Shown in pieces: positions 10,967 through 38,958 of a stretch of DNA of 64,000 bases. Source of the stretch: Elusimicrobiota bacterium. GTDB taxonomy: Bacteria > Elusimicrobiota > Elusimicrobia > UBA1565. Every line of letters starts with the position of its first letter. The stretch's first letter is position 1. The position numbers and the translations under genes were made by a program. The notes under the pieces were generated by a model. It was given only the letters and a program-made list of their open reading frames with translations, was not told where the DNA came from and ran no database searches. The stretch lies in assembly GCA_043827405.1 (NCBI GenBank), contig JBDRPD010000087.1, positions 53,023 through 117,022 on the forward strand, read 5' to 3'.

Positions 10967-10996
10967 GCCGGCGGCGCTTTTTGCTAATCTCCATCC

Positions 10997-18847: not shown

Positions 18848-18877
18848 CCTCCACGCGATAACTATTAGAATCTTTCC

Positions 18878-19750: not shown

Positions 19751-19758
19751 CCGCCGAC

Positions 19759-21237
19759 CTAGTACGCCTCGTCTATCTTCTCCACCACGGTGCGGATGAC
19801 CTTGATGCGGGCCCCGCGCTTGTCGTTGCCTTCGACCAGCGTCCAGGGCGCGCAGTCGGTGCTGGTCTTCTCGATCATATCGCAGGCCGCCGCCTCATAG
19901 GCGTCCCACTTCTTGCGGTTGCGCCAGTCCTCCTCGGTCAGCTTGTACTGCTTATAGGGCTTGAGGTTGCGGTCCTTAAAGCGCTGGAGCTGCTCCTGCG
20001 GCGTGATGGCGATCCAGAACTTGAGGAGGATGATCCCGAAGTCGGTGAGCTGTTCCTCGAAAGCGTTGATCTCGCCGTAAGCGCGCGTCCATTCATCGGG
20101 GGAGCAGAAGCCCTCCAGACGCTCGACGAGCACGCGCCCGTACCAGGAGCGGTCGTAGACCGCCATCCGCCCGGTGCGCGGCAGGTCGCGCCAAAAACGC
20201 CACAGGTAGGGGTGCGCGCGTTCGATCTCGTCCGGCGCCGAAGTCGATATAACGCGGTAGAGCCGCGCATCCATGGCCCGCGTCATGCGCCGGATCGAGC
20301 CGCCCTTGCCGGCCGCATCCGGCCCCTCAAAAAGCAGCAGCACCGACTTCTTGCGGCCGCGCAGGCGCCGCGTCAGGTCCGCGAGCCGGCCCTGCCACCG
20401 GGGAAGCTCCTTGTCGTAATCCTCCCGGCTCAGCGCTTTCGTGAAATCGAGGCGGCGCAGGATATTGACCGGCTTGGGCCTGGGGACCGTCGGTTTGGCG
20501 TCAGGCTGCAGCTTATTGGATTTCAACTTATTGTTGATCGCCTTGATCAGCGCCTTGGCGGCGGTCAAAGCGGTATGCCGGCGGTCCGCCGCCTCGACGA
20601 TCTGCCACGGGACCGCGGCCGTGCCGGTCTTGCGCAGCGTCTGCTCCGATACTTCACGGAAACGGTCGTAGCGCTTGAGGAAGCGCCAGTCCTTGGCGGT
20701 AACGCGCCAGCGCGTTTCAGGATCCTTCTCGAGCTTATTGAAGCGCCGCCGCTGATCCTTCTTGGATAGATGCAGCCACAGCTTGACCACCAGGACTTTC
20801 TCATCGGCCAGCAGCGTCTCGAAATCCTTGATGTGCCCCAGTTCCTTATAGAAGGAAGCCTTCTTCTTGCGGTGAAAGACGCGGTCCACTATCAGGTCGC
20901 TGTACCAGGATCCCAGAAAAACCGCCATTTTCCCCTTGGGCGGGAGCATCCGCCAGTAGCGCCAGAAGCGCGGCCGCTCCTTTTCCTCATCCGAGGGCTC
21001 CCACGGCGCGTGGACCTCAACGCCGCGCGCGTCCATCCACTCGACAAGAAGGTTGACAAGCTGGGTCTTGCCGGCGCCTTCCACTCCGGAGACCAGGAGC
21101 GCCACCGAGAAGTCCGCCTTGGAGAGCTGCTTTTGCGCCTCCAGCAGGGCCAGGCGCAGCTTGGGGACCTCCTTGTCGAAGGTCTCCTTGTCGGTCTTTA
21201 TTCCAAGCTCGGCGATTTCGAACATGATGCCCCCCAT
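19759..21237 (-). CDS. pap: Polyphosphate:AMP phosphotransferase (two-domain PPK2)
   Basis: Two PPK2 domains (GVEGAGK / EGPDAAGKGG, GSWY / DRSWYGRV, EDWRNR). Confidence 0.93.
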   Translation of the reverse strand: MGGIMFEIAELGIKTDKETFDKEVPKLRLALLEAQKQLSKADFSVALLVSGVEGAGKTQLVNLLVEWMDARGVEVHAPWEPSDEEKERPRFWRYWRMLPPKGKMAVFLGSWYSDLIVDRVFHRKKKASFYKELGHIKDFETLLADEKVLVVKLWLHLSKKDQRRRFNKLEKDPETRWRVTAKDWRFLKRYDRFREVSEQTLRKTGTAAVPWQIVEAADRRHTALTAAKALIKAINNKLKSNKLQPDAKPTVPRPKPVNILRRLDFTKALSREDYDKELPRWQGRLADLTRRLRGRKKSVLLLFEGPDAAGKGGSIRRMTRAMDARLYRVISTSAPDEIERAHPYLWRFWRDLPRTGRMAVYDRSWYGRVLVERLEGFCSPDEWTRAYGEINAFEEQLTDFGIILLKFWIAITPQEQLQRFKDRNLKPYKQYKLTEEDWRNRKKWDAYEAAACDMIEKTSTDCAPWTLVEGNDKRGARIKVIRTVVEKIDEAY

Positions 21238-22097: not shown

Positions 22098-22283
22098 CTA
22101 CAGCAACCCCAGGATAAAAACGTAAACGCTCACCAGGATGAGATGAACGACGGCGAACGGCAGCGCCTTTTTTTCGACCAAATCAGTAACCAGCAGGACC
22201 TTGGGGAAATGGACTTCCTGATATTCATAGGGCTCCCGCATGGCGCGCTTGAAGACAGATTCGAATACATCTAATTTTGCCAT
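22098..22283 (-). pseudogene. Small ORF or deletion remnant divergent from rnfB
   Basis: 61-aa ORF (MAKLDVFESVFK...) with a soluble-looking N-half joined abruptly to a hydrophobic tail. Confidence 0.3.
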
Positions 22284-22381
22284 TATCATATTAATTAACT
22301 TTTTTATGGCTTTTTCCAAATCATCCCATTGGCTGTTTTGTTGCAATTTGATTAGCCGACACCTGACTCCTCGCATCGCTA

Positions 22382-23254
22382 ATGACTACACAGGCATTTA
22401 TCACCGCAACCTCTTTTATGGTAGGCCTTGGCGCGACGCTGGCGATCGTGCTGGCCCTGGCCAATAAGCGGCTCCATGTTGAGGAAGACCCGCGCATCGA
22501 CGAAGTGGAAGAGAAGCTTCCCGGCAATAACTGCGGCGCCTGTGGACTGCCGGGCTGCCGGGCCTTCGCCGAAAAAGCCGTGGCCGGCGAGGTAAACCCC
22601 GCCAAGTGCACGGTGAGCCCACCGGAAGAGATCGATGCCATCGCCGCCCTGCTCGGCGTCGAGGCCGAGGCCGAAGAAAAACGCGTCGCGCGGCTGGCCT
22701 GCGCCGGCGGCGACAACGTCGCACGTCAGCGCGTGCACTACCAGGGCATGGCATCCTGCCAGGCCGCCGCGCTGGCCACCGGCGGCGGCAAGGGCTGCGT
22801 CTGGGGCTGTCTCGGCTTCGGCGACTGCGGCGACGTCTGCACCTTCGAAGCCATCAAGATGGACGCCAACGGCCTGCCCATCGTCGACCCCGATAAGTGC
22901 ACGGCCTGCGGCGACTGCGTCGAAATCTGTCCCAAATCCCTGTTTTCCCTGCAGCCGGTGAGCCGCAAGCTCTGGGTCGCCTGCATGAACGGGGCCGCGG
23001 GCGACGCCGCCGAGAACGAATGCGCCGTCGCCTGCACCGCCTGCGGCCTATGCGCCGCCGACGCGGCCGAAGGCCTTATCACAATGCGCAACAACCTCCC
23101 TTTTATCGATTACCGCAAAAACGAACAGGCTTCGGACGACGCCATCGAGCGCTGCCCCACGGGCGCGATCGTATGGCTGGAAAGCCGGACTCGCCGCGTG
23201 AAAGGCGCCAGCGCCAAGCGGATCGTCCGCGAGACCCCTCTGCCGGTCGGATAG
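22382..23254 (+). CDS. rnfB: Rnf complex subunit B (polyferredoxin type)
   Basis: N-terminal TM helix, LPG.NCGACG..GC, GCLGFGDC...C, CTACGDCVEICP, CTACGLC and CPTGAI motifs. Confidence 0.95.
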   Translation: MTTQAFITATSFMVGLGATLAIVLALANKRLHVEEDPRIDEVEEKLPGNNCGACGLPGCRAFAEKAVAGEVNPAKCTVSPPEEIDAIAALLGVEAEAEEKRVARLACAGGDNVARQRVHYQGMASCQAAALATGGGKGCVWGCLGFGDCGDVCTFEAIKMDANGLPIVDPDKCTACGDCVEICPKSLFSLQPVSRKLWVACMNGAAGDAAENECAVACTACGLCAADAAEGLITMRNNLPFIDYRKNEQASDDAIERCPTGAIVWLESRTRRVKGASAKRIVRETPLPVG

Positions 23255-23258
23255 AACC

Positions 23259-26200
23259 ATGATGAGCTTTTTTCGCCGCAAAGAAACCCAGCGTGCCCCC
23301 TTCCCGGGAATACGCACGGCGCAGTCGGGCCGCGCCGCGGCCATAGTATGGACCAAAGACGGCGCCCCATCGGTCGCACGCTTGGCCGGAATCGCGATGA
23401 CCGGCGCGCGCGCCAGCGCCTGGATCGACGGCGAGACGCTCCTCGCCGAATTCGGCATGCTGCGCGAAGCGGCCGCGCGCCACATCCCCTTCGTGCTCCA
23501 CCTGGAGCGCGGCGCGGCCTCCTCCGGCGGCCTGTCCGATTTCCCCGCTTTCGACGACGCGGGCTGCTTTCTCATGCACGCCCGCAGCGCCCAGGAAGCC
23601 GCCGACTTCTCGCTTATCGCGCACCGGATCGCGGAGCGCGCCCTCGTTCCCGGCGTGGTAATCCAGGACGCGCCGCTGACCACCCAGACCACGGCCTCCA
23701 TCCTGCGGCCGGAAGACGATCTGGTCAAAGAGTACCTCGGCTCGGCGGACGACCTGGTGGCGGCGCCCACAGGGGCGCAGAAGATTCTATTCGGCGGCCG
23801 CCGGCGGCGGATTCCCGAGCTGTGGTCCGTGGACCGCCCGCTGGTCGCCCCGTCCTCGTACGGCGAGGACTCTCTTGGTGAGAGCCGGGTCGGCGGGCGC
23901 CTGTTCTTCCTCGACCACGTAGCCGGAATCGCCGACGAGGCGATGCGGCGCTTCGAGGAGCTTACCGGCCGCGGCTACGACCGCGCGGCGGCGGTGCTCA
24001 ACGGCGACGCCGAATATACGATCCTCTGCACGGGAGCCGAGACCGGCACCGCGGAGGCCGCCGCCGCCGACTTCAGCCGCAAGCGCTGCGGCATGGGCCT
24101 GGTCAGCCTGTCGATGCTGCGGCCGTTTCCGGCCGAAGACCTGCGGCGCCTGCTGGCGGGACGCAAGGGCATCCTGGTGTTGGAGAACCGCGACGCCGCC
24201 CTGGCCGAGGACCCGCCGCTGACCCGCGAAACGCGCGCGGCGCTCGGCGCCTCCTGCCCGCCGCTCTACACCGCCGTCCATGGGCTCGGCGGCAGCGCGC
24301 TCCGTCCCGGCGAGCTGTACCCGGCGCTGGAGAACATCCTCGCCCAAGGCAGCCGCCGGCGCAGCGTCTACCTGTCGCTTTCCCAGCCCGCACCGCGGTC
24401 GCCCAAGCAGGAGATCGAACAGCAGGCGGTGCTCGACGCCTATCCCGAAGCCGCCGAGCGCATGCCCGCCCCGGCGCCCGCCGCCGACCTGCTGCCGGCG
24501 GGCGCGTTCACGATCCGTTTATTGGGCGCCGCCCCCGCGCTGCGCGACGCCGCCGGCGAGCGCCTCGGCGCGCTGCTCGCGGAGCTTTTCGAGCACCGCC
24601 TGCGGGCGCACGCCGAGCCGGAAAGCGGCTCCTACCGGATCACGGTGGCGCACGAGGAAATCCGCACCGCCGCCGCTCCCGCCGCGGCCGACATCGCGAT
24701 CATTCTCGACCCCGCGCTGCTGCGCGGCGGCGCGCTCGACGGCGTGCGCAAAAGCGGCTGCGTCATCCTGCAGAGCGTCGCCGACAAGCCCGAGCATGTC
24801 CGCGACGCCCTCCCCCCGCGAGCCCTGCGCACCGCCCGCGACCGGATGCTGCGGCTGTTCGCCGCCGACATCCGCGCGCTGTCGAGCATGCAGAATCCCG
24901 AAGAACTGGCCTACGTACTCCTGGGCTGCGCGACGGCGGCGATGAACTCCCTCGTTTACGCCGCCCCCCCCGAAGCGCGCCTAAAAGAGACCTTGCGCCA
25001 GCCGCTCGTCAAGCGCGGCCACAACGCGCTTATCGAGCTCGGCGAGATCCCCGGCGCCGCATCCGCCCCGGAAACCGGGAAGGAGCCGGAGCTTCCGCTG
25101 CGCCTAAATACGCACCCCTGCGCCGACGTCCCGGTCGCGGACATCCACCGCTTCTATGCGCAAACCGGACATCGTTACGCCGCCGACAGCGGCGGCAACC
25201 CCGTGGACCCCTTCCTCGCTTCGGGCCATGCTCCCGCCGCGACCGGCATCCTGCGCAGCCACAGCGCCGAGCGCGACAGCTACCCGCGTCTCAACCCGGA
25301 GAAGTGCAGCGGCTGCGGCGACTGCTGGCTCGCCTGCCCGGACGCCGCTCTGCCGGCGCGCGTCAACGACTTCTCCGAGATCTGCGAGTGCGCGATCAGC
25401 CAGCTGGAAACGGAAGGCCACAAGATTGAGCACCTGCCGACGACCCTGCGCCAGGTCCAAGCCGAGTACGAGGCGCTGGCAGGAGACCTGCCGGCCGGCC
25501 GCTCGTTCCAGGAGCTGCTGCGCCGCGCGATCGAACGAACGGCAACGGCGTCCCGGCTCGCCGGCGGCGCGCGCGCGGAATTCGAAGCCGAGCTCGCCCT
25601 CTTCCAGGACAAGCTCAAGAATTTCCCGGCCGCGATGACCGAGCCTTTTTACGCCCAAGGCGGCGGCGGGCTGCTGTCGATCGCCGTCGACGCCGATGCC
25701 TGCCGCGGCTGCCTGAGCTGCGTCGCGGTATGCCGGGAAAACGCGCTCGTCCCCGCCAAGCAGACGCCGGCGGCGGACATGGAGCTGCGCCGCAGCTTCG
25801 CTTTTGCCCAGTCGCTGCCGGGCACCGACACGCGGCACATCCTCAGCGTCGATACGGAAGGGGACGCCAAGGGAGCGGCGACGCTGCTCCTTGATGCCCG
25901 AGCCCACGGCGCGACCGTCGGCGGCGGCGGCGGCGAAGCAGGCGCGGGCGAGCGCACGGCGCTGCGGCTCTTCGCGGCGGCGACGACCGCCACGCTCCGG
26001 CAGCGTCTCAACCGGAAGGCGGCCGTGCTCAAAGGGCTTATCGAAAGACTTGAGAACCACATTCGCCTGGGGCTGTCGGTCGATATCCAGGACCCCTCCG
26101 CCCTCGCCGACATCCTGAAGGACCCGGAAGGCGGGGCCGTCACGCTGGCGGAAATATCCGCGCGGCTCGACCGCGAAAACAAGCCGCTCGATAAAGAGTG

Positions 26201-27392
26201 GCTCAAGCGGGTCACCGGCGCGCTCGCGGAGCTCAAATCCTGGCGCGCGCGCATCATAACCGGCGGGACCGCGCGCGCGGATTTCGGCGCCGTGCTCGTC
26301 GGCGCGGGACAGCTCGCCCGCTACCCCTACAACCCCTTCGCTTTCCCCTGCGCCCGGGTCGACAAGAACGGCGGCGTCGACCTCGCGCTCGGGCTGTTCA
26401 CGGGACATATGCGCAAGATGGCCGCGGGGATCAAGGCCTGCCGCATCGCCGAGCTTGAGCTCGACGGAAAATACAAGCCGAAGATCCATGACGAGGTATT
26501 CCGGCGCTTCGACTGGCGCTCCTTCAGCGATGACGAGCGGCGCCTGTGCCCGCCCGTCGCCGTATTCGGCGCGGCGCGCGACCTTTTCGGGCCGGCCTTC
26601 CAAAGCCTCAGCGCCGCGCTGTCCTCCGGGTGCCCGATTAAAATAATCGCCTTCGCCGCTGCGGGGGACCTGCCGGAGAACGCGCTGATCGCGGCGGCGC
26701 ACCCCGAAATCTACGTCCTGCAAAGCGGCATTGCCGATCCCGTGCATCTTATTAACGGCTTCATCGCCGGCATCTCCTCGCGGCGCCCCGCGCTCTTTCA
26801 GGTCTTTGCCGGCGGCGCCGGGGACACCGCCGCCCGCCAGGCGCGCGGGGCGCGGGACGCGCGCGCCCTGCCCTATCTGCGCTACGATCCCGAGCAGGGA
26901 GCGGGCGACGATGAGCGTCTGGATCTCTCCGGCAATCCCGAACTTGAGGCCGACTGGACCACCCGCAAGCTGCACCACATCGACGAAGAAGGCCGTCCGG
27001 CCACCCTGGACATACCTTATACGTTCGCCGACTACGCCGCGACCGAGCCGGCCTTCCGCGACGAGTTCGTCGAGGTTCCGCCGCGCTCCTGGGGCTCCGA
27101 CATGGTCCCGGTCGCCGACTATCTCGAAATGGACGCCGACGAGCGCGCCGAAGCGGTCGCCTTTGTCTGGGCGGTGGACTGGTCCGGCACACTCAAACGT
27201 CTCAAGGTCTCCGCCGCCATACTGCGGACCTGCGAGCGCCGGCTGGTTTTCTGGCGGGGACTCAAACGCCGCAAGCGCCTGGATATCGCGACCGTCGACG
27301 AAAACGTCATCGCGGAGAAGGCCCGCGGCGAGATGGTGGAAAAATTGACGCAGTCCCTCATGGAACTGGCGCAGAGCGGTAGGAGCGGATGA
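23259..27392 (+). CDS. Pyruvate:ferredoxin oxidoreductase (NifJ)-like protein with degenerate catalytic motifs
   Basis: PFOR landmarks AQEAADF..IAH..AE, RPFP, ATG..R, CSGCGDCWLACPD, CRGCLSCVAVC, YPYNPF, YDP..LSGNP and TFAD. YPITP and GDG..N are absent. Confidence 0.8.
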   Translation: MMSFFRRKETQRAPFPGIRTAQSGRAAAIVWTKDGAPSVARLAGIAMTGARASAWIDGETLLAEFGMLREAAARHIPFVLHLERGAASSGGLSDFPAFDDAGCFLMHARSAQEAADFSLIAHRIAERALVPGVVIQDAPLTTQTTASILRPEDDLVKEYLGSADDLVAAPTGAQKILFGGRRRRIPELWSVDRPLVAPSSYGEDSLGESRVGGRLFFLDHVAGIADEAMRRFEELTGRGYDRAAAVLNGDAEYTILCTGAETGTAEAAAADFSRKRCGMGLVSLSMLRPFPAEDLRRLLAGRKGILVLENRDAALAEDPPLTRETRAALGASCPPLYTAVHGLGGSALRPGELYPALENILAQGSRRRSVYLSLSQPAPRSPKQEIEQQAVLDAYPEAAERMPAPAPAADLLPAGAFTIRLLGAAPALRDAAGERLGALLAELFEHRLRAHAEPESGSYRITVAHEEIRTAAAPAAADIAIILDPALLRGGALDGVRKSGCVILQSVADKPEHVRDALPPRALRTARDRMLRLFAADIRALSSMQNPEELAYVLLGCATAAMNSLVYAAPPEARLKETLRQPLVKRGHNALIELGEIPGAASAPETGKEPELPLRLNTHPCADVPVADIHRFYAQTGHRYAADSGGNPVDPFLASGHAPAATGILRSHSAERDSYPRLNPEKCSGCGDCWLACPDAALPARVNDFSEICECAISQLETEGHKIEHLPTTLRQVQAEYEALAGDLPAGRSFQELLRRAIERTATASRLAGGARAEFEAELALFQDKLKNFPAAMTEPFYAQGGGGLLSIAVDADACRGCLSCVAVCRENALVPAKQTPAADMELRRSFAFAQSLPGTDTRHILSVDTEGDAKGAATLLLDARAHGATVGGGGGEAGAGERTALRLFAAATTATLRQRLNRKAAVLKGLIERLENHIRLGLSVDIQDPSALADILKDPEGGAVTLAEISARLDRENKPLDKEWLKRVTGALAELKSWRARIITGGTARADFGAVLVGAGQLARYPYNPFAFPCARVDKNGGVDLALGLFTGHMRKMAAGIKACRIAELELDGKYKPKIHDEVFRRFDWRSFSDDERRLCPPVAVFGAARDLFGPAFQSLSAALSSGCPIKIIAFAAAGDLPENALIAAAHPEIYVLQSGIADPVHLINGFIAGISSRRPALFQVFAGGAGDTAARQARGARDARALPYLRYDPEQGAGDDERLDLSGNPELEADWTTRKLHHIDEEGRPATLDIPYTFADYAATEPAFRDEFVEVPPRSWGSDMVPVADYLEMDADERAEAVAFVWAVDWSGTLKRLKVSAAILRTCERRLVFWRGLKRRKRLDIATVDENVIAEKARGEMVEKLTQSLMELAQSGRSG

Positions 27393-28735
27393 GCCTGCCG
27401 ACCTTTCCGCACGGCATCCATCCCCCGGAGGCCAAGGAGATTTCAAACTCCAAGCCCATCCGGCGCTTCCCCTTCGCCCCCTACCTGGTCATTTTCCTGT
27501 CCCAGCATACGGGCAAGCCCGCCCGCGCCCTGGTCCGCGCCGGGCAGGAGGTGCGCCGCGGCGACAAAATCGCGGAGGCCGACGGCTTCGTCTCCGTCCC
27601 GCATTACGCGCCCGCGACCGGCAGGATCAAGGCCGTAACCCAGGCGATGAATTTCGACGGCAAAATGGCGGATGCCATCATCCTCATCCCCCATCCCGGC
27701 TCGCCGCAGGAGCTCGCGCCGAGCAAGCAGATCGACGTCACGCGGCTCACGCCAGCGCAGATCGTCGCCGGCATCCAGAACATGGGCATGGTGGGCCTCG
27801 GCGGGGCGGCTTTTCCGACGCATGTAAAGCTCACCCCCCCCAAGGGCCGCAAGATCGACACCCTAATCATCAACGGCTGCGAATGCGAGCCCTACCTGAC
27901 CAGCGACCACCGCGTCATGCTTGAGCGCTCGGCTGAGATTATCCTCGGCGCGCGGCTGCTGGCGAAAGCCCTGATGGTCAAGCGCACCATTATCGCCGTC
28001 GAGTCGAACAAGCCGGACGCCATTGAGGTCCTCCGGCGCGCCGCGGCCGGAGCGGAGAAGATCGAGGTCGCCGCGCTGGAAACCAAGTACCCGCAGGGCG
28101 CGGAGAAGATGCTGACCAAGGCGCTGCTGGACCGCGAAATTCCCTCCGGCGGACTGCCGGCCGACATCGGGACCATGGTCTCCAACGTGGCCACCGCCGC
28201 CGAGATCGGCGAGCTCCTGCCCGCCGGCCGCGGCCTCTTTGAGCGGGTCGTAACGATCAGCGGCGAGGGGATAGAGCGGCCCGGCAACTACATCATTCCC
28301 ATCGGCACGCCGCTCGACTTCATCCTCGACACCGTCGGCTTCCGGGGCCGGGCCAAACAGGTCCTCTTCGGCGGGCCGATGATGGGCAAGGCCGTGGTGT
28401 TCCTGGAGACGCCGACGATCAAGGGGCTGACCGGCATCGTGGTCCTCGCCAAAGAGGAGCTTGCCGAGAAGAAACAGATTTACTCCTGCATCCGCTGCGC
28501 GGCCTGCGTCAACGCCTGCCCCATGCACCTCAATCCCACGCGCCTGGGCCTCCTGGCGCGGGTACACGCCTTTGACAAGATGAAGGATGAGTTCCATCTC
28601 CTCGACTGCTTCGAATGCGGCTGCTGCGCCTATGTCTGCCCATCCAATATCCCGCTGGTGCAGCACTTCCGGCTCGCCAAGGGCATCCTGCGCAAGCGCC
28701 AACTGGCGGCGGCCGCGAACGGAGCCGCCAAATGA
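27389..28735 (+). CDS. rnfC: Rnf complex subunit C
   Basis: GIHP, QH.G, GLGGA.FPT..K, ECEPYLTSD, KYPQG.E, GGPMMG, CIRC..C...CP and CFECG.C.YVCP motifs. Confidence 0.97.
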   Translation: MSLPTFPHGIHPPEAKEISNSKPIRRFPFAPYLVIFLSQHTGKPARALVRAGQEVRRGDKIAEADGFVSVPHYAPATGRIKAVTQAMNFDGKMADAIILIPHPGSPQELAPSKQIDVTRLTPAQIVAGIQNMGMVGLGGAAFPTHVKLTPPKGRKIDTLIINGCECEPYLTSDHRVMLERSAEIILGARLLAKALMVKRTIIAVESNKPDAIEVLRRAAAGAEKIEVAALETKYPQGAEKMLTKALLDREIPSGGLPADIGTMVSNVATAAEIGELLPAGRGLFERVVTISGEGIERPGNYIIPIGTPLDFILDTVGFRGRAKQVLFGGPMMGKAVVFLETPTIKGLTGIVVLAKEELAEKKQIYSCIRCAACVNACPMHLNPTRLGLLARVHAFDKMKDEFHLLDCFECGCCAYVCPSNIPLVQHFRLAKGILRKRQLAAAANGAAK

Positions 28736-29757
28736 CCATGCCGGCGAAGTATCTCGACATGGAGCTGCGCATCTCGCCGCACGGCAAGCGCCCCGTCGAC
28801 ACCGTCGCCATTATGCGCACCGTGGTGCTGGCCCTGCTCCCGGTCGCCGCCGCCGCCGTATACATCTTCGGCGCCGGCGCGCTGCTGCTGCTGCTGAGCA
28901 CCGTCGCCTCCTGCCTCGCGGCGGAAGCCGCCGCCTGCCGGGTGAGCGGCCGCGCCTCTTCGCTGCCGGACTACTCCGCAGTCATCACCGGCCTGCTCCT
29001 CGGCCTGACTTTGCCGCCCGGTTTTCCGTTATGGATGGCGGCGGTCGGCGGCTTTGTCTCCATCGGGCTGGGCAAAACCCTGTTCGGCGGCCTAGGCTTC
29101 AATATCTTTAATCCCGCGCTGGTCGGCCGCGCCTTCCTGCAGGCGGCCTTTCCGGTCGCCATCACCAGCTGGTCGCCGGTCCTGTCCGCGGCCCGCTTCC
29201 GGAGCCTGCCGCCGGGGACGCTGACAGTGCCGTTCACGCACCCGACCGCCGACGCCTTCTCCGGCGCCACCCCTCTGGCGGCGATGAAGTTCGACCATGC
29301 GGCGGCGCCGCTGGGCGACCTGCTCTTCGGCGGCGTGCCGGGCTCAATGGGCGAGACCTGCGCCGCGGTTATCCTGCTCTGCGGCCTCTACCTGGCGCTG
29401 CGCCGGATGCTGGACTGGCGCATCCCGGCCGGCATCTTCACCGCGGTCATCGTGACCAGCGCGATGGTGCGCCTGATCGTCCCCTCCGCGCCGACGCCCG
29501 GATTCATGCTGCTCTCGGGAGGCCTCATGCTGGGCGCGGTATTTATGGCGACGGACATGGTCACCTCCCCCGTCACCTCCCGCGGCGTATGGCTCTACGC
29601 CGGCCTCATCGGCATGCTGGTCGTCATCATCCGCGTCTGGGGCGGCCTGCCGGAGGGCGTGATGTACGCCATCCTTATCGGCAACGCCGTGACGCCGGGA
29701 CTCAACCGCATCACCCAGCCCAGAGTTTACGGGACCTCGTGCAGGAGCGTGAAGTGA
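28732..29757 (+). CDS. rnfD: Rnf complex subunit D
   Basis: SPH, FGGLG.NIFNPA, SGATPL (FMN-Thr), GS.GE and FMATD.VTSP motifs; ATG overlaps the rnfC stop (ATGA). Confidence 0.96.
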   Translation: MTMPAKYLDMELRISPHGKRPVDTVAIMRTVVLALLPVAAAAVYIFGAGALLLLLSTVASCLAAEAAACRVSGRASSLPDYSAVITGLLLGLTLPPGFPLWMAAVGGFVSIGLGKTLFGGLGFNIFNPALVGRAFLQAAFPVAITSWSPVLSAARFRSLPPGTLTVPFTHPTADAFSGATPLAAMKFDHAAAPLGDLLFGGVPGSMGETCAAVILLCGLYLALRRMLDWRIPAGIFTAVIVTSAMVRLIVPSAPTPGFMLLSGGLMLGAVFMATDMVTSPVTSRGVWLYAGLIGMLVVIIRVWGGLPEGVMYAILIGNAVTPGLNRITQPRVYGTSCRSVK

Positions 29758-30410
29758 AAGGCAAGAGCGCGGAGATGATCGGCGTCCTCACGGGAGTCGC
29801 GACGATCTGCGGCGTCCTCATCGTCGGCGCCTACCAGACCACTTTACCGCTGATCAACGCCAATAAGGCGGCCTACCTCAAAGCGGCCGTCTTCAAGGTC
29901 ATCCCGGGCGCGGTGAAGACCGCCGCCTTCACTGTGGACGCCGACGGCAGCTTGACCCCGGCGGGCGAAGGGCAGCCGGCCGCGGCCCATGCGGTTTATG
30001 ACGAGAACGGCGGCCTCCTCGGCATCGCCCTGGAGGCCAGCGGCCAGGGCTTCCAGGAAATCATCCGGGTGCTCTACGGCTATTCGCCGGCGCAGCGCGC
30101 GGTCGTCGGCTTCATGGTGCTGGAAAGCAAAGAGACGCCGGGGCTCGGCGACAAGATCGAGAAAGACCCCGCCTTCCTGGCGAATTTCAACGCCCTCGAC
30201 GTCGCCCTGGACGCCGGCGGCGACCAGCTCGCGCACCCGATCACGGTGGTAAAGCCCGGCAAGAAGACCTCGGCCTGGGAGATCGATGCGATCTCCGGGG
30301 CGACGATCTCCTCTAAAGCCATCGGCCGCCTGCTCGATGAAAGCACCCGCGTGAAGATTCCCCTGGTGCACCGGAACCTGCAGCGGCTTAAGGAAGGCGC
30401 CGGCGGATGA
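29754..30410 (+). CDS. rnfG: Rnf complex subunit G
   Basis: N-terminal TM, ETPGLG, DAISGATISS (FMN-Thr); GTG overlaps the rnfD stop. Confidence 0.93.
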   Translation: MKGKSAEMIGVLTGVATICGVLIVGAYQTTLPLINANKAAYLKAAVFKVIPGAVKTAAFTVDADGSLTPAGEGQPAAAHAVYDENGGLLGIALEASGQGFQEIIRVLYGYSPAQRAVVGFMVLESKETPGLGDKIEKDPAFLANFNALDVALDAGGDQLAHPITVVKPGKKTSAWEIDAISGATISSKAIGRLLDESTRVKIPLVHRNLQRLKEGAGG

Positions 30411-31015
30411 GCGAAAAGAACGCGGACGTATTCCTTAAGAAGCTGTGGGAGGAAAACCCCGTCTTCGTGCATCTCCTCGGCATGTGCCCGACGCTGGCGG
30501 TGTCCAACTCAGTGATCAACGCGCTGGCGATGGGGCTGGCCACGCTGTTCGTGCTCGTAATGTCGAGCATGCTGATCTCCATGCTGCGCCGGCTGATCCC
30601 CAAGCAGGTGCGCATCGCCACCTTCATCATGATCATCGCCACCTTTGTCACCCTGGCCGAGTACGTCATCCAGGCGGTCAGCCTCGAGATCCACAAGAGC
30701 CTCGGCGCCTTCATCTCGCTGATCGTCGTCAACTGCATCATTCTGGGGCGCGCCGAGTCCTTCGCCTACAAAAAACCGGTCATCCCGTCGATCCTCGACG
30801 CCCTCGGCACCGGCATCGGCTTCACTCTGGCCATCCTGGCCATGGGCTCGATCCGCGAAATCCTCGGCTCGGGCTCTTTCGCCGGCGTCCCGCTGTTCGG
30901 GCCGTCGTTTGAGCCCTGGGTCGTCATGATCCTGCCGGGCGGCGGCTTCTTCGTCCTCGGCCTGCTGCTGCTGGCCGTCAATAAAATCAACCTGCTCCGG
31001 GGGAAGAAGCAATGA
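30407..31015 (+). CDS. rnfE: Rnf complex subunit E
   Basis: ENP....LGMCP.LAV, LIVVNCIILGRAE, REILG and LP.GGF motifs. Confidence 0.96.
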   Translation: MSEKNADVFLKKLWEENPVFVHLLGMCPTLAVSNSVINALAMGLATLFVLVMSSMLISMLRRLIPKQVRIATFIMIIATFVTLAEYVIQAVSLEIHKSLGAFISLIVVNCIILGRAESFAYKKPVIPSILDALGTGIGFTLAILAMGSIREILGSGSFAGVPLFGPSFEPWVVMILPGGGFFVLGLLLLAVNKINLLRGKKQ

Positions 31016-31599
31016 ACAGCGATCCCCTGTGGCTGATCTTCGTCAACGCCTGCTTCGTCAATAACTTCGTGCTGGCCTACTTCCTCGGCATCTGCCCCTT
31101 CCTCGGCGTATCCGGGAAGCTCGAAACAGCGAGCCGCATGGGCATCGCCGTCACCTTCGTGATGCTGGTCAGCTCGACCTGCGCCTTCGGCATCCACACC
31201 TTCCTGGTGCGCATCGACGCGCAGTATCTGCAGCTGATCGCCTATATCGCCGTGATCGCCTCCTCGGTGCAGCTGGTCGAAATGTTCATCAAGAAGTTCA
31301 GCCCGGCGCTGTTCCGGGCGCTCGGAATTTTCCTGCCGCTGATCACGACCAACTGCGCTATCCTCGGCCTGGCGCTCTTCCAGACCAGCCGCGCCTACAG
31401 TCTGCCGCAGTCGCTGGCCTTCGCGGTCGGCGCCGGCGCCGGCTTCACCCTCGCCCTGGTGATCATGGCGGGGATACGCGAGGAGCTCGAGCTCGCGGAC
31501 GTCCCCGACGTGGTCCGCGGCGCCGCGATCACGCTGATGATCGCGGGCGTGCTGTCTTTGGCGTTCATGGGCTTCGCCGGACTCGGAGGCGGAGCATGA
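31012..31599 (+). CDS. rnfA: Rnf complex subunit A
   Basis: NNFVL..FLGICPF.GVS, LGIFLPLITTNCAILG and AFMGF motifs. Confidence 0.96.
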   Translation: MNSDPLWLIFVNACFVNNFVLAYFLGICPFLGVSGKLETASRMGIAVTFVMLVSSTCAFGIHTFLVRIDAQYLQLIAYIAVIASSVQLVEMFIKKFSPALFRALGIFLPLITTNCAILGLALFQTSRAYSLPQSLAFAVGAGAGFTLALVIMAGIREELELADVPDVVRGAAITLMIAGVLSLAFMGFAGLGGGA

Positions 31600-31751
31600 T
31601 CCGCGACCTCCTCATCGCTATCGGCGGCATCGCGGTCTTATCGATTTTTTGGGTCGTCGTCGAACACCTGCGCTGTTCCGTCATCGGCCGCCCCGCATCC
31701 TCATGCGCGGGCTGCCCGGACACGGACTGCGGGAAGCAACCAATCCCATGA
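31596..31751 (+). CDS. 51-aa single-TM Cys-rich peptide (not in ORF track)
   Basis: ATG overlaps the rnfA stop (ATGA), preceded by GGAGG. Translates MIRDLLIAIGGIAVLSIFWVVVEHLRCSVIGRPASSCAGCPDTDCGKQPIP. Confidence 0.7.
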   Translation: MIRDLLIAIGGIAVLSIFWVVVEHLRCSVIGRPASSCAGCPDTDCGKQPIP

Positions 31752-31764
31752 AAGGACGGGCGCA

Positions 31765-33681
31765 ATGAAAAAACCACGCAAGATCAGGAAAGAAGAACAC
31801 ATCGTTGAGATTGTCAGCGACGCCGGCGAGGGCGCGCAAAAGGCCGCCGTGGCTTTCGCCCAGACCTGCGCCCGGATGGGCAACGGCCTGTGGACGGTCG
31901 AGATCATCCCCTCGGAGATCCAGCCGCCGCCGCATACCACCGGCAGCGCCAGCGGCAACCGCATCCGCCTGTCCGAAAAGCCGCTGGTAACCAATGCCGG
32001 CGACAAGGCGAATTTGGTCCTGGCCTTCAACGAGATGGCTTTCCTATCACGCATCGAAGCCAACTCGGTGGCCGACGACGTCATCCTGGTCATCGACAGC
32101 ATGTGGGCCGAGCACGACGACCCGGAAATCCGCAAGAACTACGCCCAGATCACCGAGGACGTGCGCCAGAAGGGCGGCACGGTCCTGGAGATCCCGTTCG
32201 AGAAAGAGACCCTAAAGATCGTGGAAGACCCGCGGCGCGGCAAGAACATGTTCGCCTACGGCTTCCTCTGCGCCCTCTACTGCCGCGACAAGGAAGTGAT
32301 GCTCGAGGTGGTAAAGACGACCTTCGGCAAAAAATCGCAAAAAGTGATCGACACCAACGTCGCCCTGGCCGACAAGGGCTACCAGTACGGAGAGGAGCAC
32401 CTGGAGTACCAGTTCGAGATCCTCGCCAAGCCCTCCGACAAGCAAATGGTGGCGATGAACGGCAACCTCGCGATCGCGCTGGGCGCGATCGCCGCCGGCT
32501 ACGAGATGTGCTCGATGTATCCGATCACGCCGGCGACCTCGGCCTCGCACTTCCTGTCCGACATCTTCGAGGACCTGGGCGGCTTCGTGCACCAGGCCGA
32601 AGACGAGATCGCCGCCATCGGCGTGGCCATCGGCGCCTCTTATGCCGGCAAGGCGGCCATCACCATCACCTCGGGCCCGGGCATGGCGCTCAAAACCGAG
32701 TTCCAGGGCCTGGCCGTCATGACCGAAACGCCGCTGGTCATCGTCGACGTACAGCGCGGCGGACCGAGCACCGGCCTGCCGACAAAGATCGAGCAGGGCG
32801 ATCTCTTGTCCTCGATCTTCGGCACCCCGGGAGACGCCCCCAAGGTGGTCTTGGCCGCGAGCAACATCGAGGACTGCTTCTACATCCTGGCAACGGCGCG
32901 CAAGATCTCCGAAGAGTTTCGGACTCTGGTTATCGTCCTGACCGACGCCAACCTGGCCACCGGCCAGCAGATCTTCCAGCGGCCGGAGCTCTCCGAGGCG
33001 ACCCTGCCGCCGCCGATGGACCTCAACCCCGTCCCCAAGGGGACTTTGCCTTTCGACTGGGACGAAAAGACCGGCCTGTCGCGGCGGCTGATCCCGGGCC
33101 AGGCCAACGGCATGTCGGTGATCACCACGCTCAACCACGCAAAGGACGGCAAGGCCTGCTACGACTACGAGAGCAACCAGCACGGCCACCGCATGCGCAG
33201 CCGCAAGCTGGCCACCCTGCAGAAGACGCTCAAGACCCCGCCGATCTACGGACCGGACGAGGGCGACCTGCTGATCGTCGGCTGGGGCAGCACGCGCGGC
33301 GCGATCGAGGAGGCGGTGGACCGGGCGCAGGCGGAAGGCTACCACGTGTCTTCGATGAACATCCAGTTCCTCAACCCGCTGCCGTCGGGGCTCAAGCAGG
33401 CCTTCTCGCGCTTCGATAAGGTGATGACGATCGAGCTCAACTACAGCGACGACGCGGACGATCCGGAGATCACCGCGGAAAACCGCCGCTACAGCCAGCT
33501 CTGCCTGCTGCTGCGCGCGAATACGCTCATGGATATCGACACCTGGTCCCGCGTACCGGGCCGGCCCTTCATGCCCTTTGAGCTGACGGAAGTGATTCGA
33601 CATGAGCTGGGCGAACCGAGGAAGCCCGGTGAGGAACGCAAGAAGAAACCCAAGCAGACCGCGGTACGAGGTGCGAAATGA
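31765..33681 (+). CDS. korA: 2-oxoacid:ferredoxin oxidoreductase alpha subunit (gamma-alpha fusion, KorA-like)
   Basis: YPITPA, QAEDEIAA, TSGPG..LK.E, QRGGPSTGLPTK.EQ.D and GWGST.G motifs. Confidence 0.9.
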   Translation: MKKPRKIRKEEHIVEIVSDAGEGAQKAAVAFAQTCARMGNGLWTVEIIPSEIQPPPHTTGSASGNRIRLSEKPLVTNAGDKANLVLAFNEMAFLSRIEANSVADDVILVIDSMWAEHDDPEIRKNYAQITEDVRQKGGTVLEIPFEKETLKIVEDPRRGKNMFAYGFLCALYCRDKEVMLEVVKTTFGKKSQKVIDTNVALADKGYQYGEEHLEYQFEILAKPSDKQMVAMNGNLAIALGAIAAGYEMCSMYPITPATSASHFLSDIFEDLGGFVHQAEDEIAAIGVAIGASYAGKAAITITSGPGMALKTEFQGLAVMTETPLVIVDVQRGGPSTGLPTKIEQGDLLSSIFGTPGDAPKVVLAASNIEDCFYILATARKISEEFRTLVIVLTDANLATGQQIFQRPELSEATLPPPMDLNPVPKGTLPFDWDEKTGLSRRLIPGQANGMSVITTLNHAKDGKACYDYESNQHGHRMRSRKLATLQKTLKTPPIYGPDEGDLLIVGWGSTRGAIEEAVDRAQAEGYHVSSMNIQFLNPLPSGLKQAFSRFDKVMTIELNYSDDADDPEITAENRRYSQLCLLLRANTLMDIDTWSRVPGRPFMPFELTEVIRHELGEPRKPGEERKKKPKQTAVRGAK

Positions 33682-34646
33682 CCCCCCTGAATATCGAAGA
33701 ACTGGTAGAGAAAGACTGCGCCACCAAGAACTACAAGCTCGAGGACTACGAGGCGCCTTATCCGGCACGCTGGTGCAAAGGCTGCGGCGACTTCGGCGTT
33801 CTGACGGCCATCCAGAAAGTGCTGCGCGACGCCAATATGGCTCCGGAAAACGTGGTCTGCTGCTCGGGCATCGGCTGCTCCAGCCGCCTGCCCCACTACC
33901 TGAAGACCTACGGCTTCCACGGCATCCACGGCCGGGCGCTGACGCTGTCGACCGGCGTATCGCTGGCCCGGCCGGACCTGAAAGTCATCACCATCATGGG
34001 CGACGGCGACTGCTTCTCGATCGGCGGCAACCACTGGCTGCACGCGATCCGCTACAACGTGGATCTCACGGTCCTGGTGCTCGACAACGAGGTCTACGCC
34101 CTGACCAAGAAGCAGGCATCGCCCACGACGCCCCAAGGCGGGATAACCAATACGACGCCGCGCGGCTCGTATCTCAAGCCGCTCAATCCCATCAGCACCA
34201 TGATGGGAATCGCCAATGTCTCATTTTTGGCGCAGACGGCGACGTGGTTTCCGACGCACCTGGAAGCGACCATCCAGAAGGCCTGGAAGCACAAAGGCCT
34301 GTCCTTCGTGCGCGTGCTGCAGCGCTGCCCGGCGTACATGCCAGCCGCCTTCGGCAACGGCGGCCTGCAGTATCCGGCCGCCTTCCTCAAAAACGACAAC
34401 GGCATACCGTTTGACGCCGACGACGCGGCCGCCGCCAAGGTGCAGGAGCATGACCAGCACGACCTCAACATGGCCCTGCGCGTCGCGGCCGTCACCGATC
34501 CGGCGCCCATGGGACTCATCTACTGGAACCCCGATCTGCCGACGTACAACGAAACGCGGCTGTCGCGCGTGCGCAAGCATGACCGCAAGACGCTGCTGGC
34601 CCGGCTCGACGGGGAGCTGGATAAATACGCCGTAAAACGCAAGTAG
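33678..34646 (+). CDS. korB: 2-oxoacid:ferredoxin oxidoreductase beta subunit (KorB-like)
   Basis: WC.GCGD, SGIGCSSR, HGR, GDGD..SIGGNH, DNEVY.LTK.Q.SPT and Q.CP motifs. Confidence 0.92.
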   Translation: MTPLNIEELVEKDCATKNYKLEDYEAPYPARWCKGCGDFGVLTAIQKVLRDANMAPENVVCCSGIGCSSRLPHYLKTYGFHGIHGRALTLSTGVSLARPDLKVITIMGDGDCFSIGGNHWLHAIRYNVDLTVLVLDNEVYALTKKQASPTTPQGGITNTTPRGSYLKPLNPISTMMGIANVSFLAQTATWFPTHLEATIQKAWKHKGLSFVRVLQRCPAYMPAAFGNGGLQYPAAFLKNDNGIPFDADDAAAAKVQEHDQHDLNMALRVAAVTDPAPMGLIYWNPDLPTYNETRLSRVRKHDRKTLLARLDGELDKYAVKRK

Positions 34647-34653
34647 GCCCAAA

Positions 34654-36468
34654 ATGAAACAGCAGGAAGTCACCCAACAAATCGAAACGTGCTCAGAGCA
34701 CGCGCAGGCGGACCTGATGGAACGCCTGCATACGGCGCACCGCGAGATCGACGACCTTCTGACGCTCGAAGAGCATCACCGCACCGGACATCAGAGCGAG
34801 AGGCTGCAGACCTCGATGCGCGGCTTCGGCGACGGAGTCCTCGACACCCGGGCCCTCTCCGCGGTCCTCGACCAAGGCGACGAGAGCCGGCGCATGAACA
34901 AGGACCGCCACCAGCGCATCCTCAAGGTGCGCGACGAGCTCAAGGCCCTCATCGAGAGCTACGAGAAGAGTCCGCCCAAGCCGGCGACCATGCCGCTGGG
35001 CGCCGATGCCGACGCGATCCTCAAGCGCGCAGAGGACCATCTCAACAAGATGGCCAAGGCCTTCCGCCTGATACGGATCGTGCGCCTCGAGGTCCGCGCC
35101 CAGTACCAGAAGGAGCTCCACGATCCGTTCTTCAAGCGCTTCAACTGGGAGCATCTGAGCAACGACGAAGTCGCCCTCTGCCCGCCTTTCCTCGTGACGG
35201 ACGAGCCGGCGGGAGAGCTCGACATCGCCAAGGTGCTGCACCTCATCTCCAGCGGCCGCCCGGTAAAGCTGCTGCTGCTGCGCACCGAACTGCGCAAGCG
35301 GCCGGGGACCACCGGCCGCTCGTCGGCGCTGCAATGCGTAATGGATCTGGAAATGCTGCCGGTCGCCATGCGCGGCGTCTACTTCATCCAGACCACGACC
35401 GCCCGCCAGGACCTCGACGCCCTGCTGGAGGCGGGGCTTCGCTCACCCCGGCCGGCGCTGTTCTCGCTGTTCGGCGCCGACGCCGCGCACGAGAACGGCT
35501 TTCGCACCCGCGCCGAGCGGGCGCTGTCCTCAAGGGCCCATCCGCATATCGTATACGACCCCGACCGCTCGCCCCAGTTCGTCGCCTGCTTTGACCTCTC
35601 GGGCAACCCGGCCATGGACCGCAACTGGACCAACGCTCAGCTCGAACACCGCACGGACAAGGGCGACGCCGAGACCCTGGAACGGGAGTTCACCTTCGCC
35701 GACTTCGCGGTGCAGGAAGCCGCGTTTTCGGGCGAGTTCTCGGTGCTGCCCGCCGACCTGGAAGGCCGGGAGCCCGTCACGCTGGCGGAATACATCTCCC
35801 TGCCCGCCGACCAGCGCAGCGGCAAGCTGCCCTTCGTCTATTCGCTCAACGAAAAGCAGCGCCTCACCAAGCTCGTGCCTTCGCGCGCCATGATCGTACA
35901 GACCGCCGAGCGGCTCAAGCTGTGGCGGGCGCTGCGCGAAATGGCGGGCGTCGAAAACCCCTTCGTCAAGGAAGCCGAGAAGCGGGTCAAGACCCGCCTC
36001 ACCGACGAGAAGGAAGCCTCGCTAAAGGAGCTGCAGGGCCGCATGGAGACGCAGATCGCGGCCCGGCAGAAGGAGGCGGTCACGACGGCGATGCGCAACC
36101 TCGCCCGCCAGTTGACCGGCCTGGAGGCGCTCGCGCCGGCGCCGGAGACGGCGCCCGCGGCGTCGGCGACCACTGAGGCCGCGCCGGCCGCCGCCGCGCC
36201 GGCCAAGCCGACGGGAACCAGCGACCTGCCGTGGATCCAAAGCAAGAAGTGCACGACCTGCGACGAATGCACCAATATCAATAAAAAGATATTCGCCTAT
36301 AACGAGAACAAGCAGGCCATCATCGCCGACCCCAAGGGCGGACCTTTCCGGGATATCGTCAAGGCGGCCGAGAAGTGCTCGGCGCGCATCATCCATCCCG
36401 GCAGGCCGCAGGACCCGAGCGAGAAGAACCTCGATAAGTGGGTTAAGAAGGCCGAAGCGTTTCAGTAA
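34654..36468 (+). CDS. PFOR C-terminal-like protein with a terminal ferredoxin domain
   Basis: Shares F.W...S.DE..LCPP, YDP..DLSGNP and TFAD blocks with the 1377-aa protein; Ala/Pro linker; CTTCDEC...AAEKC ferredoxin. Confidence 0.8.
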   Translation: MKQQEVTQQIETCSEHAQADLMERLHTAHREIDDLLTLEEHHRTGHQSERLQTSMRGFGDGVLDTRALSAVLDQGDESRRMNKDRHQRILKVRDELKALIESYEKSPPKPATMPLGADADAILKRAEDHLNKMAKAFRLIRIVRLEVRAQYQKELHDPFFKRFNWEHLSNDEVALCPPFLVTDEPAGELDIAKVLHLISSGRPVKLLLLRTELRKRPGTTGRSSALQCVMDLEMLPVAMRGVYFIQTTTARQDLDALLEAGLRSPRPALFSLFGADAAHENGFRTRAERALSSRAHPHIVYDPDRSPQFVACFDLSGNPAMDRNWTNAQLEHRTDKGDAETLEREFTFADFAVQEAAFSGEFSVLPADLEGREPVTLAEYISLPADQRSGKLPFVYSLNEKQRLTKLVPSRAMIVQTAERLKLWRALREMAGVENPFVKEAEKRVKTRLTDEKEASLKELQGRMETQIAARQKEAVTTAMRNLARQLTGLEALAPAPETAPAASATTEAAPAAAAPAKPTGTSDLPWIQSKKCTTCDECTNINKKIFAYNENKQAIIADPKGGPFRDIVKAAEKCSARIIHPGRPQDPSEKNLDKWVKKAEAFQ

Positions 36469-36876
36469 TCAGTCGGCGGGGCCGACGTCGGTGAGGTACG
36501 CCTTTTGGATCGCGTCCATTTCGCGCGCGCCATGGCGTTTTAGCGCGGTGAAAAATTCCTGAAGCTCGGCGCAGACATCGTCGCCGCCCTTCGCGCAGAG
36601 CTCCGTCAGGCGGCCGATCAGCTCGTCGTGTTCTTTATATATGCGGGCGAAGGTGCTGCGCATCTCCGGCGATTCCTGGGAGAACTCCTCAAACTTCTCG
36701 ATCGACTCCTCGTACGCGAAGTGCTTGCGCATCAGCTCGCGAAAAACGGCCAGCTCACGGCGGAACTCATCGGACGGCCCACCGCCGGCCAGCGCCTTTA
36801 GGCGCGAGACGACCGTATCGATCTCCGCATGCTGCCGGTCCAGCTCCTGCCTTATCTTTTCGCTTTTCTCGTCCAT
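36469..36876 (-). CDS. Hemerythrin-like (HHE) domain protein
   Basis: Pattern QH..., HF..EE, EH.., H...E on predicted helices. Confidence 0.75.
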   Translation of the reverse strand: MDEKSEKIRQELDRQHAEIDTVVSRLKALAGGGPSDEFRRELAVFRELMRKHFAYEESIEKFEEFSQESPEMRSTFARIYKEHDELIGRLTELCAKGGDDVCAELQEFFTALKRHGAREMDAIQKAYLTDVGPAD

Positions 36877-38432: not shown

Positions 38433-38705
38433 ATGACCAAAACCATCACACTAAAGGCCCTCCGCCCCGGGCTGCCTAAAGTAGCAGACGCCATCGAATC
38501 CAAGCTGGATCGGTATATCGTTACACGGCGAGGCGAGCCGGTAATGATGCTCATTAGCCCGGAGGATTACGAAGGCCTTCTCGAGACCATTGAGATACTT
38601 TCCGACAAAGCCTCAGTTAAGCGTATTCGAAAATCTCAGAAAGAGGCTCGCACGGGCAAGACGATATCTCTCGAAGCGCTTCGGCGAAAACTAGAGGGTG
38701 TATAG
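38433..38705 (+). CDS. Type II antitoxin, Phd/YefM family
   Basis: IVTRRGEP...LIS..DYE.L.ET.EIL motif; SD AGGAGG; overlaps the toxin gene. Confidence 0.92.
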   Translation: MTKTITLKALRPGLPKVADAIESKLDRYIVTRRGEPVMMLISPEDYEGLLETIEILSDKASVKRIRKSQKEARTGKTISLEALRRKLEGV

Positions 38706-38958
38706 CCTTAGTCTGAGCCGTCAGGCTGGGAAGGACCTGGAGCGGGTATATCGGGCGGATCGAAAACTATATCAGCGCTTTCTAAATGCCTTCGAAGCTA
38801 TTGCCGCGGACCCCGACCAGGGCAAACCGCTTCATGGCGAACTCCGGGGCATGTTGTCGTATCGCCTAGGGAGCTATCGAATTCTTTATGAGATTCATCG
38901 GGGGAAGCTCCTGGTTATTGTTATTGACCTAGGCCATCGAGGAGAAATTTACAGATAA
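38698..38958 (+). CDS. Type II toxin, RelE/ParE family
   Basis: A.KDL, P..GKPL.G.L.G, YR.GSYRILY and GHR.EIY motifs. Confidence 0.92.
   Translation: MYSLSLSRQAGKDLERVYRADRKLYQRFLNAFEAIAADPDQGKPLHGELRGMLSYRLGSYRILYEIHRGKLLVIVIDLGHRGEIYR

Follow-up and report, generated by a model that had tools for sequence, protein, structure and literature searches.

A 64,000-nucleotide (nt) stretch of contig JBDRPD010000087.1 from an Elusimicrobiota bacterium, hereafter the window, carries at positions 22382-36468 an operon in which the genes of an ion-pumping Rnf complex are interleaved with genes from the family of 2-oxoacid:ferredoxin oxidoreductases (OFORs). The operon is a real, conserved variant that joins two known systems, Rnf and a KorAB oxidoreductase, by means of two pseudoenzymes related to pyruvate:ferredoxin oxidoreductase (PFOR). 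It likely encodes a dedicated, mainly oxidative electron path, leading from 2-oxoglutarate through a tethered ferredoxin and Rnf to NAD+.

Eleven co-oriented genes, all on the plus strand, make up the operon, in the order rnfB, a gene for a PFOR-like protein of 1377 amino acids (aa), rnfC, rnfD, rnfG, rnfE, rnfA, a 51-aa open reading frame (ORF), korA, korB and a gene for a 604-aa protein. Seven of the ten junctions are 4-nt overlaps (six ATGA and one GTGA) and the remaining gaps measure 4, 13 and 7 nt; re-measured ORFs and profile matches thus bear out the eleven genes, coordinates and junctions that an earlier note, made from the sequence alone, had listed. Such overlaps are themselves ordinary in operons, and it is the conserved gene order that speaks against chance. 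In a genome of the same family (G011) the tail of the operon is arranged identically (long gene-rnfCDGEA-korA; korB-604), divided among contigs, and the order rnfA-peptide-korA-korB-604 is also found in locus L081. A check of the assembly showed the stretch to be tiled, at an even depth of 19-21 and with no differences, by three contigs from run X1, possibly the source, that overlap one another; fragments of a close relative are present in a second study (X2). The genome, which occurs in groundwater metagenomes, is 98% complete, with 63% GC.

KorAB has the features of an active enzyme. KorA (31765..33681, 638 aa, domains III-I-II) scores over the TIGR03710 cut-off and has the YPITP motif, E279 and R331 all present. 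KorB (33678..34646, 322 aa), which falls under the TIGR02177 cut-off (237.7 vs 261.9), has C33, C36, C67, C217, GDGD and N137 all present. The catalytic and cluster residues (YPITP, the Glu, the substrate Arg, GDG..N of the thiamine pyrophosphate (TPP) motif and the four proximal-cluster Cys) do not vary in any of the 55 aligned copies, so that the single active KorAB put forward in the earlier note appears motif-intact. KorA represents a separate subfamily, marked by a conserved insertion in domain II, its members being 52-57% identical to one another and 35% to the canonical KorA of the genome; its nearest solved relative is the 2-oxoglutarate:ferredoxin oxidoreductase (OGOR) of M. marinus (6n2n_A, E 1e-79). 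KorB R70 aligns to R63 of 6n2n_B, a position at which M. marinus OGOR and H. pylori OorB have Arg and Sulfolobus OFORs have Lys. Arg at this R63-beta position presumably has a role in 2-oxoglutarate enzymes. The putative substrate of KorAB is 2-oxoglutarate. The conserved C-terminal helix of KorB was considered as a docking site and is a weak candidate, because in many loci, L003 and other Gemmatimonadota loci included, the final korB codons overlap the start of a short adaptor gene by 11 nt, which constrains both proteins.

The 604-aa protein (34654..36468), referred to here as the adaptor, was dissected by means of a fold model and a motif alignment. It comprises a helical hairpin, a dead PFOR domain VI, a long helix of 53 residues (436-488), a linker (492-520) and a ferredoxin. 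Domain VI retains its fold and is devoid of the GDG..N TPP motif and of the cluster Cys; the linker is an Ala/Pro segment of low model confidence, predicted to be flexible. The model (predicted local distance difference test, pLDDT, 85.6) matches the fold of PFOR 6cio (E 2e-5), and a sequence search against solved structures gave 0 matches at E 0.1. The tail is a single [4Fe-4S] ferredoxin (C533/536/539/575) that can be overlaid on D. africanus ferredoxin I (1fxr; template-modelling score TM(target) 0.84, 1.2 Å) and lies just under the PF13370 cut-off (24.3, cut-off 24.5). Adaptor homologues have lengths of about 1300, 830, 730, 604 and 335 aa. The longest, of about 1300 aa (L200, L203, L206 and L210), retain decayed PFOR domains I-II and not domain V; this length series and the domain remnants are consistent with a full long PFOR having been duplicated and then trimmed.

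The 1377-aa protein (23259..27392) has PFOR domains I-II-III-V-VI (domain roles as given in the relevant part of PMC13768988). It scores 63 bits with TIGR02176, the cut-off being 911, and the model of its residues 623-1377, which correspond to domains V-VI, has a pLDDT of 89.5 and PFOR 6cin as its best fold match (E 4e-10). Alignment with four intact long PFORs and the ordinary PFOR of the genome shows that it no longer has the YPITP loop, the region of the catalytic Glu, the TPP motif's GDG and Asn or any of the four proximal-cluster Cys. These motifs have known roles in PFORs and are retained by those intact proteins; at the substrate-Arg position the 1377-aa protein has Gly, with an Arg adjacent. 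Domain V retains both [4Fe-4S] CxxCxxCxxxC motifs (C683/686/689/693 and C815/818/821/825), which are kept by 18 of 20 dead long homologues. The protein ends in a terminal helix (~1348-1373) and has no ferredoxin tail. Both paralogues belong to a family of long PFORs (~1,650-1,700 aa) with helical insertions and a C-terminal ferredoxin; the dead long gene always lies between rnfB and rnfC. As one branch of an unrooted tree divides all dead from all intact long proteins, several origins of the dead forms are not claimed. Long PFORs of the family also occur without rnf neighbours (L001, L006, L135 and G390:C4).

To compare gene layouts, 160 loci were taken from two family alignments (best 80 per scan) and 28 from a KorA-only search; the latter is the unbiased set, with 25 loci having room downstream of korB. 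The layout count left out seven loci (six because their gene calls were split or frameshifted, one as a repeat genome) and retained about three near-duplicates. In layout A, an intact PFOR with tail lies between rnfB and rnfCDGEA, with no korAB upstream. The window aside, the region between korB and rnfC is complete in 67 loci: 42 have korAB-short adaptor-rnfB-intact PFOR with tail-rnfC (layout B), 23 have korAB-adaptor with tail-rnfB-dead protein-rnfC (layout C), and two combine a tail-less adaptor, an intact PFOR with tail and a dead protein (layout D). The window, L081 and G011 are rearranged versions of layout C, with korAB-adaptor downstream of rnfA. Layout E consists of nfnAB-korAB-adaptor with tail, without Rnf; the order nfnA-nfnB-korA-korB-adaptor was found in seven of the seven loci for which the two upstream genes were scanned jointly, and L131 has other genes there. 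With the window counted, there are 68 complete Rnf layouts, and each has exactly one gene with a ferredoxin tail and never two; since the metagenome scan selected for the tail, "at least one" is biased there, while "never two" is unaffected. The earlier note's remark that the arrangement may not be unique proved well founded in this neighbourhood search, which revealed wide conservation. When genomes from two large groups were sampled, 19 of 301 and 10 of 401 had the KorA type, which also occurs in many Gemmatimonadota loci. Among relatives of the window genome the operon is scarce: the adaptor profile matched two of 60 (G011, which has the operon, and G028, where the match is a long PFOR), and among 300 other genomes from the phylum none had the KorA type. 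This scarcity suggests lateral acquisition. A weak RnfC-like, possibly NuoF-like, gene stands upstream of korA in L100, L213, L215 and L218, recalling the 'nuoF*' of an Escarpia symbiont cluster, and genes for an ApbE flavin transferase and FNR-like NAD-binding proteins flank intact-PFOR Rnf operons (L005, L084 and L115).

In the unbiased set, the adaptor gene lies immediately downstream of korB in 24 of 25 loci (the exception being L208), and 17 of these 24 run on into rnfB. Taken with the layouts, this adjacency indicates that the adaptor goes with KorAB and that the dead long protein goes with Rnf. As the ferredoxin of the 604-aa protein travels with KorAB and the 1377-aa protein with Rnf, coupling would rely on a tethered ferredoxin rather than being ferredoxin-free. 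The earlier note had proposed that KorAB may be wired to RnfB through two non-catalytic Fe-S scaffolds. The genetic linkage of KorAB, Fe-S proteins and Rnf is conserved, and both scaffolds are non-catalytic by motif; the ferredoxin is nevertheless not dispensed with, being carried as a leashed domain, and the scaffolds are not equivalent, one being a ferredoxin on a predicted leash and the other belonging to the Rnf side.

In adaptors from Rnf loci the long helix finishes with an amphipathic segment, much like the one that terminates the dead long proteins. This terminal helix is kept in 16 of 16 unbiased adaptor-rnfB loci (13 by profile and three by eye). In the first set, 11 of 60 tailed adaptors are devoid of it; none of the 11 shows an rnf gene, five of them lying on contigs no longer than about 3 kb. 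The KorA-only set includes six helix-less adaptors, and rnfC is present in none of their six genomes versus six of six other genomes compared; nfnAB lies upstream in the five of five that were checked. The paired terminal helices have anticorrelated net charges (rho -0.70, n=19; -0.71, n=12 with kin collapsed), a relation matched by 0.3% of 3000 random pairs of sequence windows in a test chosen post hoc, after the sequences had been viewed; the signs are reversed with respect to the usual ones in the window operon and in L100. Complex prediction with residues 405-497 of the 604-aa and 1290-1377 of the 1377-aa protein scored 0.00 against a mark of 0.32, in a run in which the controls were unfolded and the partner fold uncertain. 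We regard the terminal helix as a lead, not a result: it may act as a hook to the Rnf side. A putative hooked supercomplex, with the adaptor clamping the ferredoxin on KorAB and a charge-matched helix hooking the second pseudoenzyme on Rnf, is conceivable and at present somewhat doubtful. In this tentative reading, the assembly might be an ion-pumping membrane 2-oxoglutarate:NAD+ oxidoreductase, and removal of the hook might re-plug the KorAB unit into NfnAB.

With regard to direction, the genome encodes citrate synthase, an ordinary PFOR, E1-type dehydrogenases, a haem-copper oxidase and Nqr, as well as a canonical korAB next to sucCD. No sucA was found in this 98%-complete genome, nor was a SucCD paralogue of the ATP-citrate-lyase type; the ATP-citrate-lyase profile PF16114 had no match in the genome, and its control also matched nowhere. 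The single-cluster tail seems to fit oxidation better than CO2 reduction, going by the relevant portion of PMC12337175. The reverse carboxylation offered as an alternative in the earlier note is judged less likely, and we hold oxidation to be considerably more probable than reduction. Expression values reported in PMC11636981 for the Riftia symbiont under sulfide limitation show a fall of korA(3), korB(3) and 'PFOR-like ferredoxin' (-2.6, -2.6 and -1.9), which are consecutive loci there (RS16060/65/70), and a rise of the korAB of the reductive tricarboxylic acid (rTCA) operon (+2.5 and +2.8).

The path that we favour would run as follows. KorAB would oxidise 2-oxoglutarate; the adaptor, bound to KorAB, would let its leashed ferredoxin pass the electrons to the clusters of the 1377-aa protein and/or RnfB. 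The 1377-aa protein would be docked on Rnf, the terminal helices of the two pseudoenzymes would join both halves, and NAD+ reduction by Rnf would be coupled to ion pumping. The two pseudoenzymes probably arose when a long PFOR that carried a leashed ferredoxin of its own was duplicated, one copy retaining domain V and the other the tail, with catalysis supplied by KorAB.

Besides the post hoc choice of the charge test, several observations weigh against this proposal. The helix-less adaptors form one clade (support 0.94), and helix loss together with the swap from Rnf to Nfn hence counts as a single evolutionary event. About 20 helix-bearing metagenome adaptors have no rnf gene in the fetched flank, many of them being near-identical or on short contigs. 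The dead proteins of L111 and L142 have neither cluster, so that domain V is not an obligatory relay. Locus L208 (3646-7501) has an operon-type KorAB beside a beta-keto-acid cleavage enzyme, without an adaptor, and this neighbour may hint at another KorAB substrate. The gene sucA scores over cut-off in 36 of 47 carrier genomes, on account of which the replacement of the dehydrogenase by KorAB as a general rule was rejected; given also that beside its sucCD the window genome has the second, canonical korAB, and in addition a small ORF for a free ferredoxin-like protein, the module cannot simply be regarded as the sole oxidiser of 2-oxoglutarate in the cell. Finally, the Riftia protein was assigned to the adaptor family by name and gene order only.

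The same genes could form a loose metabolic operon, in which soluble KorAB with its tethered-ferredoxin adaptor meets Rnf by diffusion and the 1377-aa protein, bound to Rnf, acts as a dock or assembly factor, the halves being unhooked. The korAB-adaptor block is indeed mobile as a unit, as it lies after rnfA in the window, before rnfB elsewhere and apart from rnf in L093, L122 and L138, and where KorAB-adaptor pairs with NfnAB the dead long protein is absent. Against this stand the terminal helix, present in all the unbiased adaptor-rnfB loci and absent where Rnf is absent, the co-variation of the paired helix charges, and the single tailed gene per operon, which suggests close-range sharing in trans. 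We consider such a loose arrangement rather unlikely. Improbable, in our judgement, is that the same wiring works mainly in reverse, with the ion-motive force and NADH driving electrons through Rnf to the leashed ferredoxin, and KorAB carboxylating succinyl-CoA or providing biosynthesis with reduced ferredoxin: Rnf and OFORs are established to be reversible, citrate synthase could run a reversed oxidative cycle, and an Escarpia symbiont cluster is named 'rTCA cycle cluster 2' (PMC6315080, Table S1), which is to be set against the indications for oxidation given above. That the PFOR-like genes are decaying relics, oxygen shields or regulators outside electron transfer is very improbable, since, although the dead proteins sit on long branches, two of 20 have lost their clusters and many carriers respire oxygen, the frames of 1050-1700 aa are open with invariant cluster Cys across several phyla, the ferredoxin Cys are invariant in 35 of 35 adaptors, and one adaptor of an NfnAB-type operon (L214:6637-9570) has the ferredoxin tail triplicated in tandem.

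The Rnf gene set of the operon is full, with the six subunits A, B, C, D, E and G. B, C, D, E and A are over their NCBIfam cut-offs: the polyferredoxin subunit RnfB (22382..23254, 290 aa; TIGR01944, 71.8 bits, cut-off 68.7), whose Cys pattern is kept among 91 operon RnfBs; the NAD/flavin mononucleotide (FMN) subunit RnfC (27389..28735, 448 aa; TIGR01945, 496.7 bits); RnfD (28732..29757, 341 aa; TIGR01946, 296.6 bits), with its start set from the overlap and the homologue in L164; RnfE (30407..31015, 202 aa; TIGR01948, 238.3 bits); and RnfA (31012..31599, 195 aa; TIGR01943, 243.8 bits). RnfG (29754..30410, 218 aa, GTG start) is over the cut-off of PF04205 (FMN_bind) and under that of TIGR01947 (79.9 vs 102 bits). 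The other Rnf/Nqr-family pair of the genome, on contig C66, is an Nqr-like operon, and a distant RnfC-like gene (G000:C33, about 10125-11000) shows 30% identity over 301 aa.

The 51-aa ORF (31596..31751) encodes a Cys peptide with a single membrane helix. ORFs with a membrane helix and a CxxC motif follow rnfA in 50 of 59 loci, compared with two of 3000 random positions, and the ORF thus belongs to a genuine gene class. Matches to PF12669 (FeoB-associated) below cut-off were obtained for 13 of 30 peptide homologues, the window copy not being among these. Identity with NqrM was rejected, as none of the 30 homologues matched NqrM and none was over any tested cut-off. Our guess is that the peptide might be an assembly or metal-insertion factor for Rnf (RnfA/E), NqrM serving as an analogy for metal insertion into RnfA/E.

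Upstream of rnfB, an AT-rich leader (22251..22350, plus strand; 26-34% GC vs 63% for the genome) is a likely promoter region. No sigma-70 consensus was found on its plus strand, and the promoter scan gave one promoter-like site versus 1.9 expected; the terminator scan gave 18 terminator-like sites versus 13.1 +/- 3.5 expected, and two RNA runs yielded only short unrelated matches, no RNA run being among those listed as containing the genome. Further upstream (17804-21237) lie a CHAD-domain gene, an ankyrin-repeat gene and a gene for a PPK2 polyphosphate:AMP phosphotransferase. A hemerythrin-domain gene (36469-36876, minus strand), possibly for an oxygen sensor, is convergent with the 604-aa gene, with zero gap between the stop codons; a Phd/YefM antitoxin and ParE toxin pair (38433-38958, plus strand) lies within a lower-GC stretch.

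2-Oxoglutarate and pyruvate dehydrogenases hand electrons of about -500 mV to NAD+, and the difference is lost as heat. If the KorAB-Rnf wiring is true, part of that energy would be banked as an ion gradient, and largely oxygen-respiring bacteria would have an energy-conserving alternative to 2-oxoglutarate dehydrogenase; the leash, if true, would shield the electrons from oxygen and rival acceptors. The putative helix hook and the swap from Rnf to Nfn may point to a plug-in part that directs low-potential electrons. 'PFOR' and 'ferredoxin' annotations at such loci are mis-read, which bears on claims of carbon fixation by the rTCA cycle.

No account of the dead paralogues, the tether or their biochemistry was found in searches of the open-access literature; the earlier note likewise knew of no biochemical characterisation. 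The accessible part of a 2026 PFOR review has neither 'pseudoenzyme' nor 'C-terminal ferredoxin' and mentions Rnf twice, generically, PMC4914600, in the portion available, adds no further gene-order information, and PMC10176493 contains none of the OGOR terms looked for.

The operon can finally be set beside known systems. Its KorAB shares the domain order (III-I-II / VI) and the TPP, CoA-region and proximal-cluster residues with M. marinus OGOR (6n2n) and the Sulfolobus OFORs (5b46 and 5b48); Arg at the R63-beta position is common to it and the former, and the latter have Lys. It differs from both in forming a subfamily of its own, in the domain-II insertion and in having a dedicated adaptor gene. 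The single-chain PFORs of D. africanus (1b0p) and M. thermoacetica (6cin) have the fold common to both paralogues, in which, by contrast, catalytic motifs are lost and domains V and VI bear large helical insertions. The adaptor tail shares its fold with D. africanus ferredoxin I and is covalently leashed instead. All six subunits are shared with the Rnf of Acetobacterium, Clostridium, Azotobacter and Thermotoga; unlike these characterised Rnfs, which to our knowledge use free ferredoxin or flavodoxin, the operon has a PFOR-family gene between rnfB and rnfC and encodes its ferredoxin as a leashed domain. The rnf2 operon of the Solemya velum symbiont (rnfB2-PFOR-rnfC2DGEA), as presented in the gene-order account of PMC4287430, also has a PFOR between rnfB2 and rnfC2, viewed there as an active pyruvate enzyme, whereas in the window the same slot holds a dead gene, and korAB and the adaptor are added. 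The Escarpia symbiont's 'rTCA cycle cluster 2' (por, rnfB, por-like, korB, korA; Table S1 of PMC6315080), whose rnf and por genes are described as co-localised and co-transcribed, and the co-regulated korAB(3)/'PFOR-like ferredoxin' genes of the Riftia symbiont (PMC11636981) have the same gene neighbours, a likeness of gene names and order. In the relevant parts of these two papers the dead paralogues and the tether go unrecognised, and the window departs from both clusters in that its korAB-adaptor block sits after rnfA.

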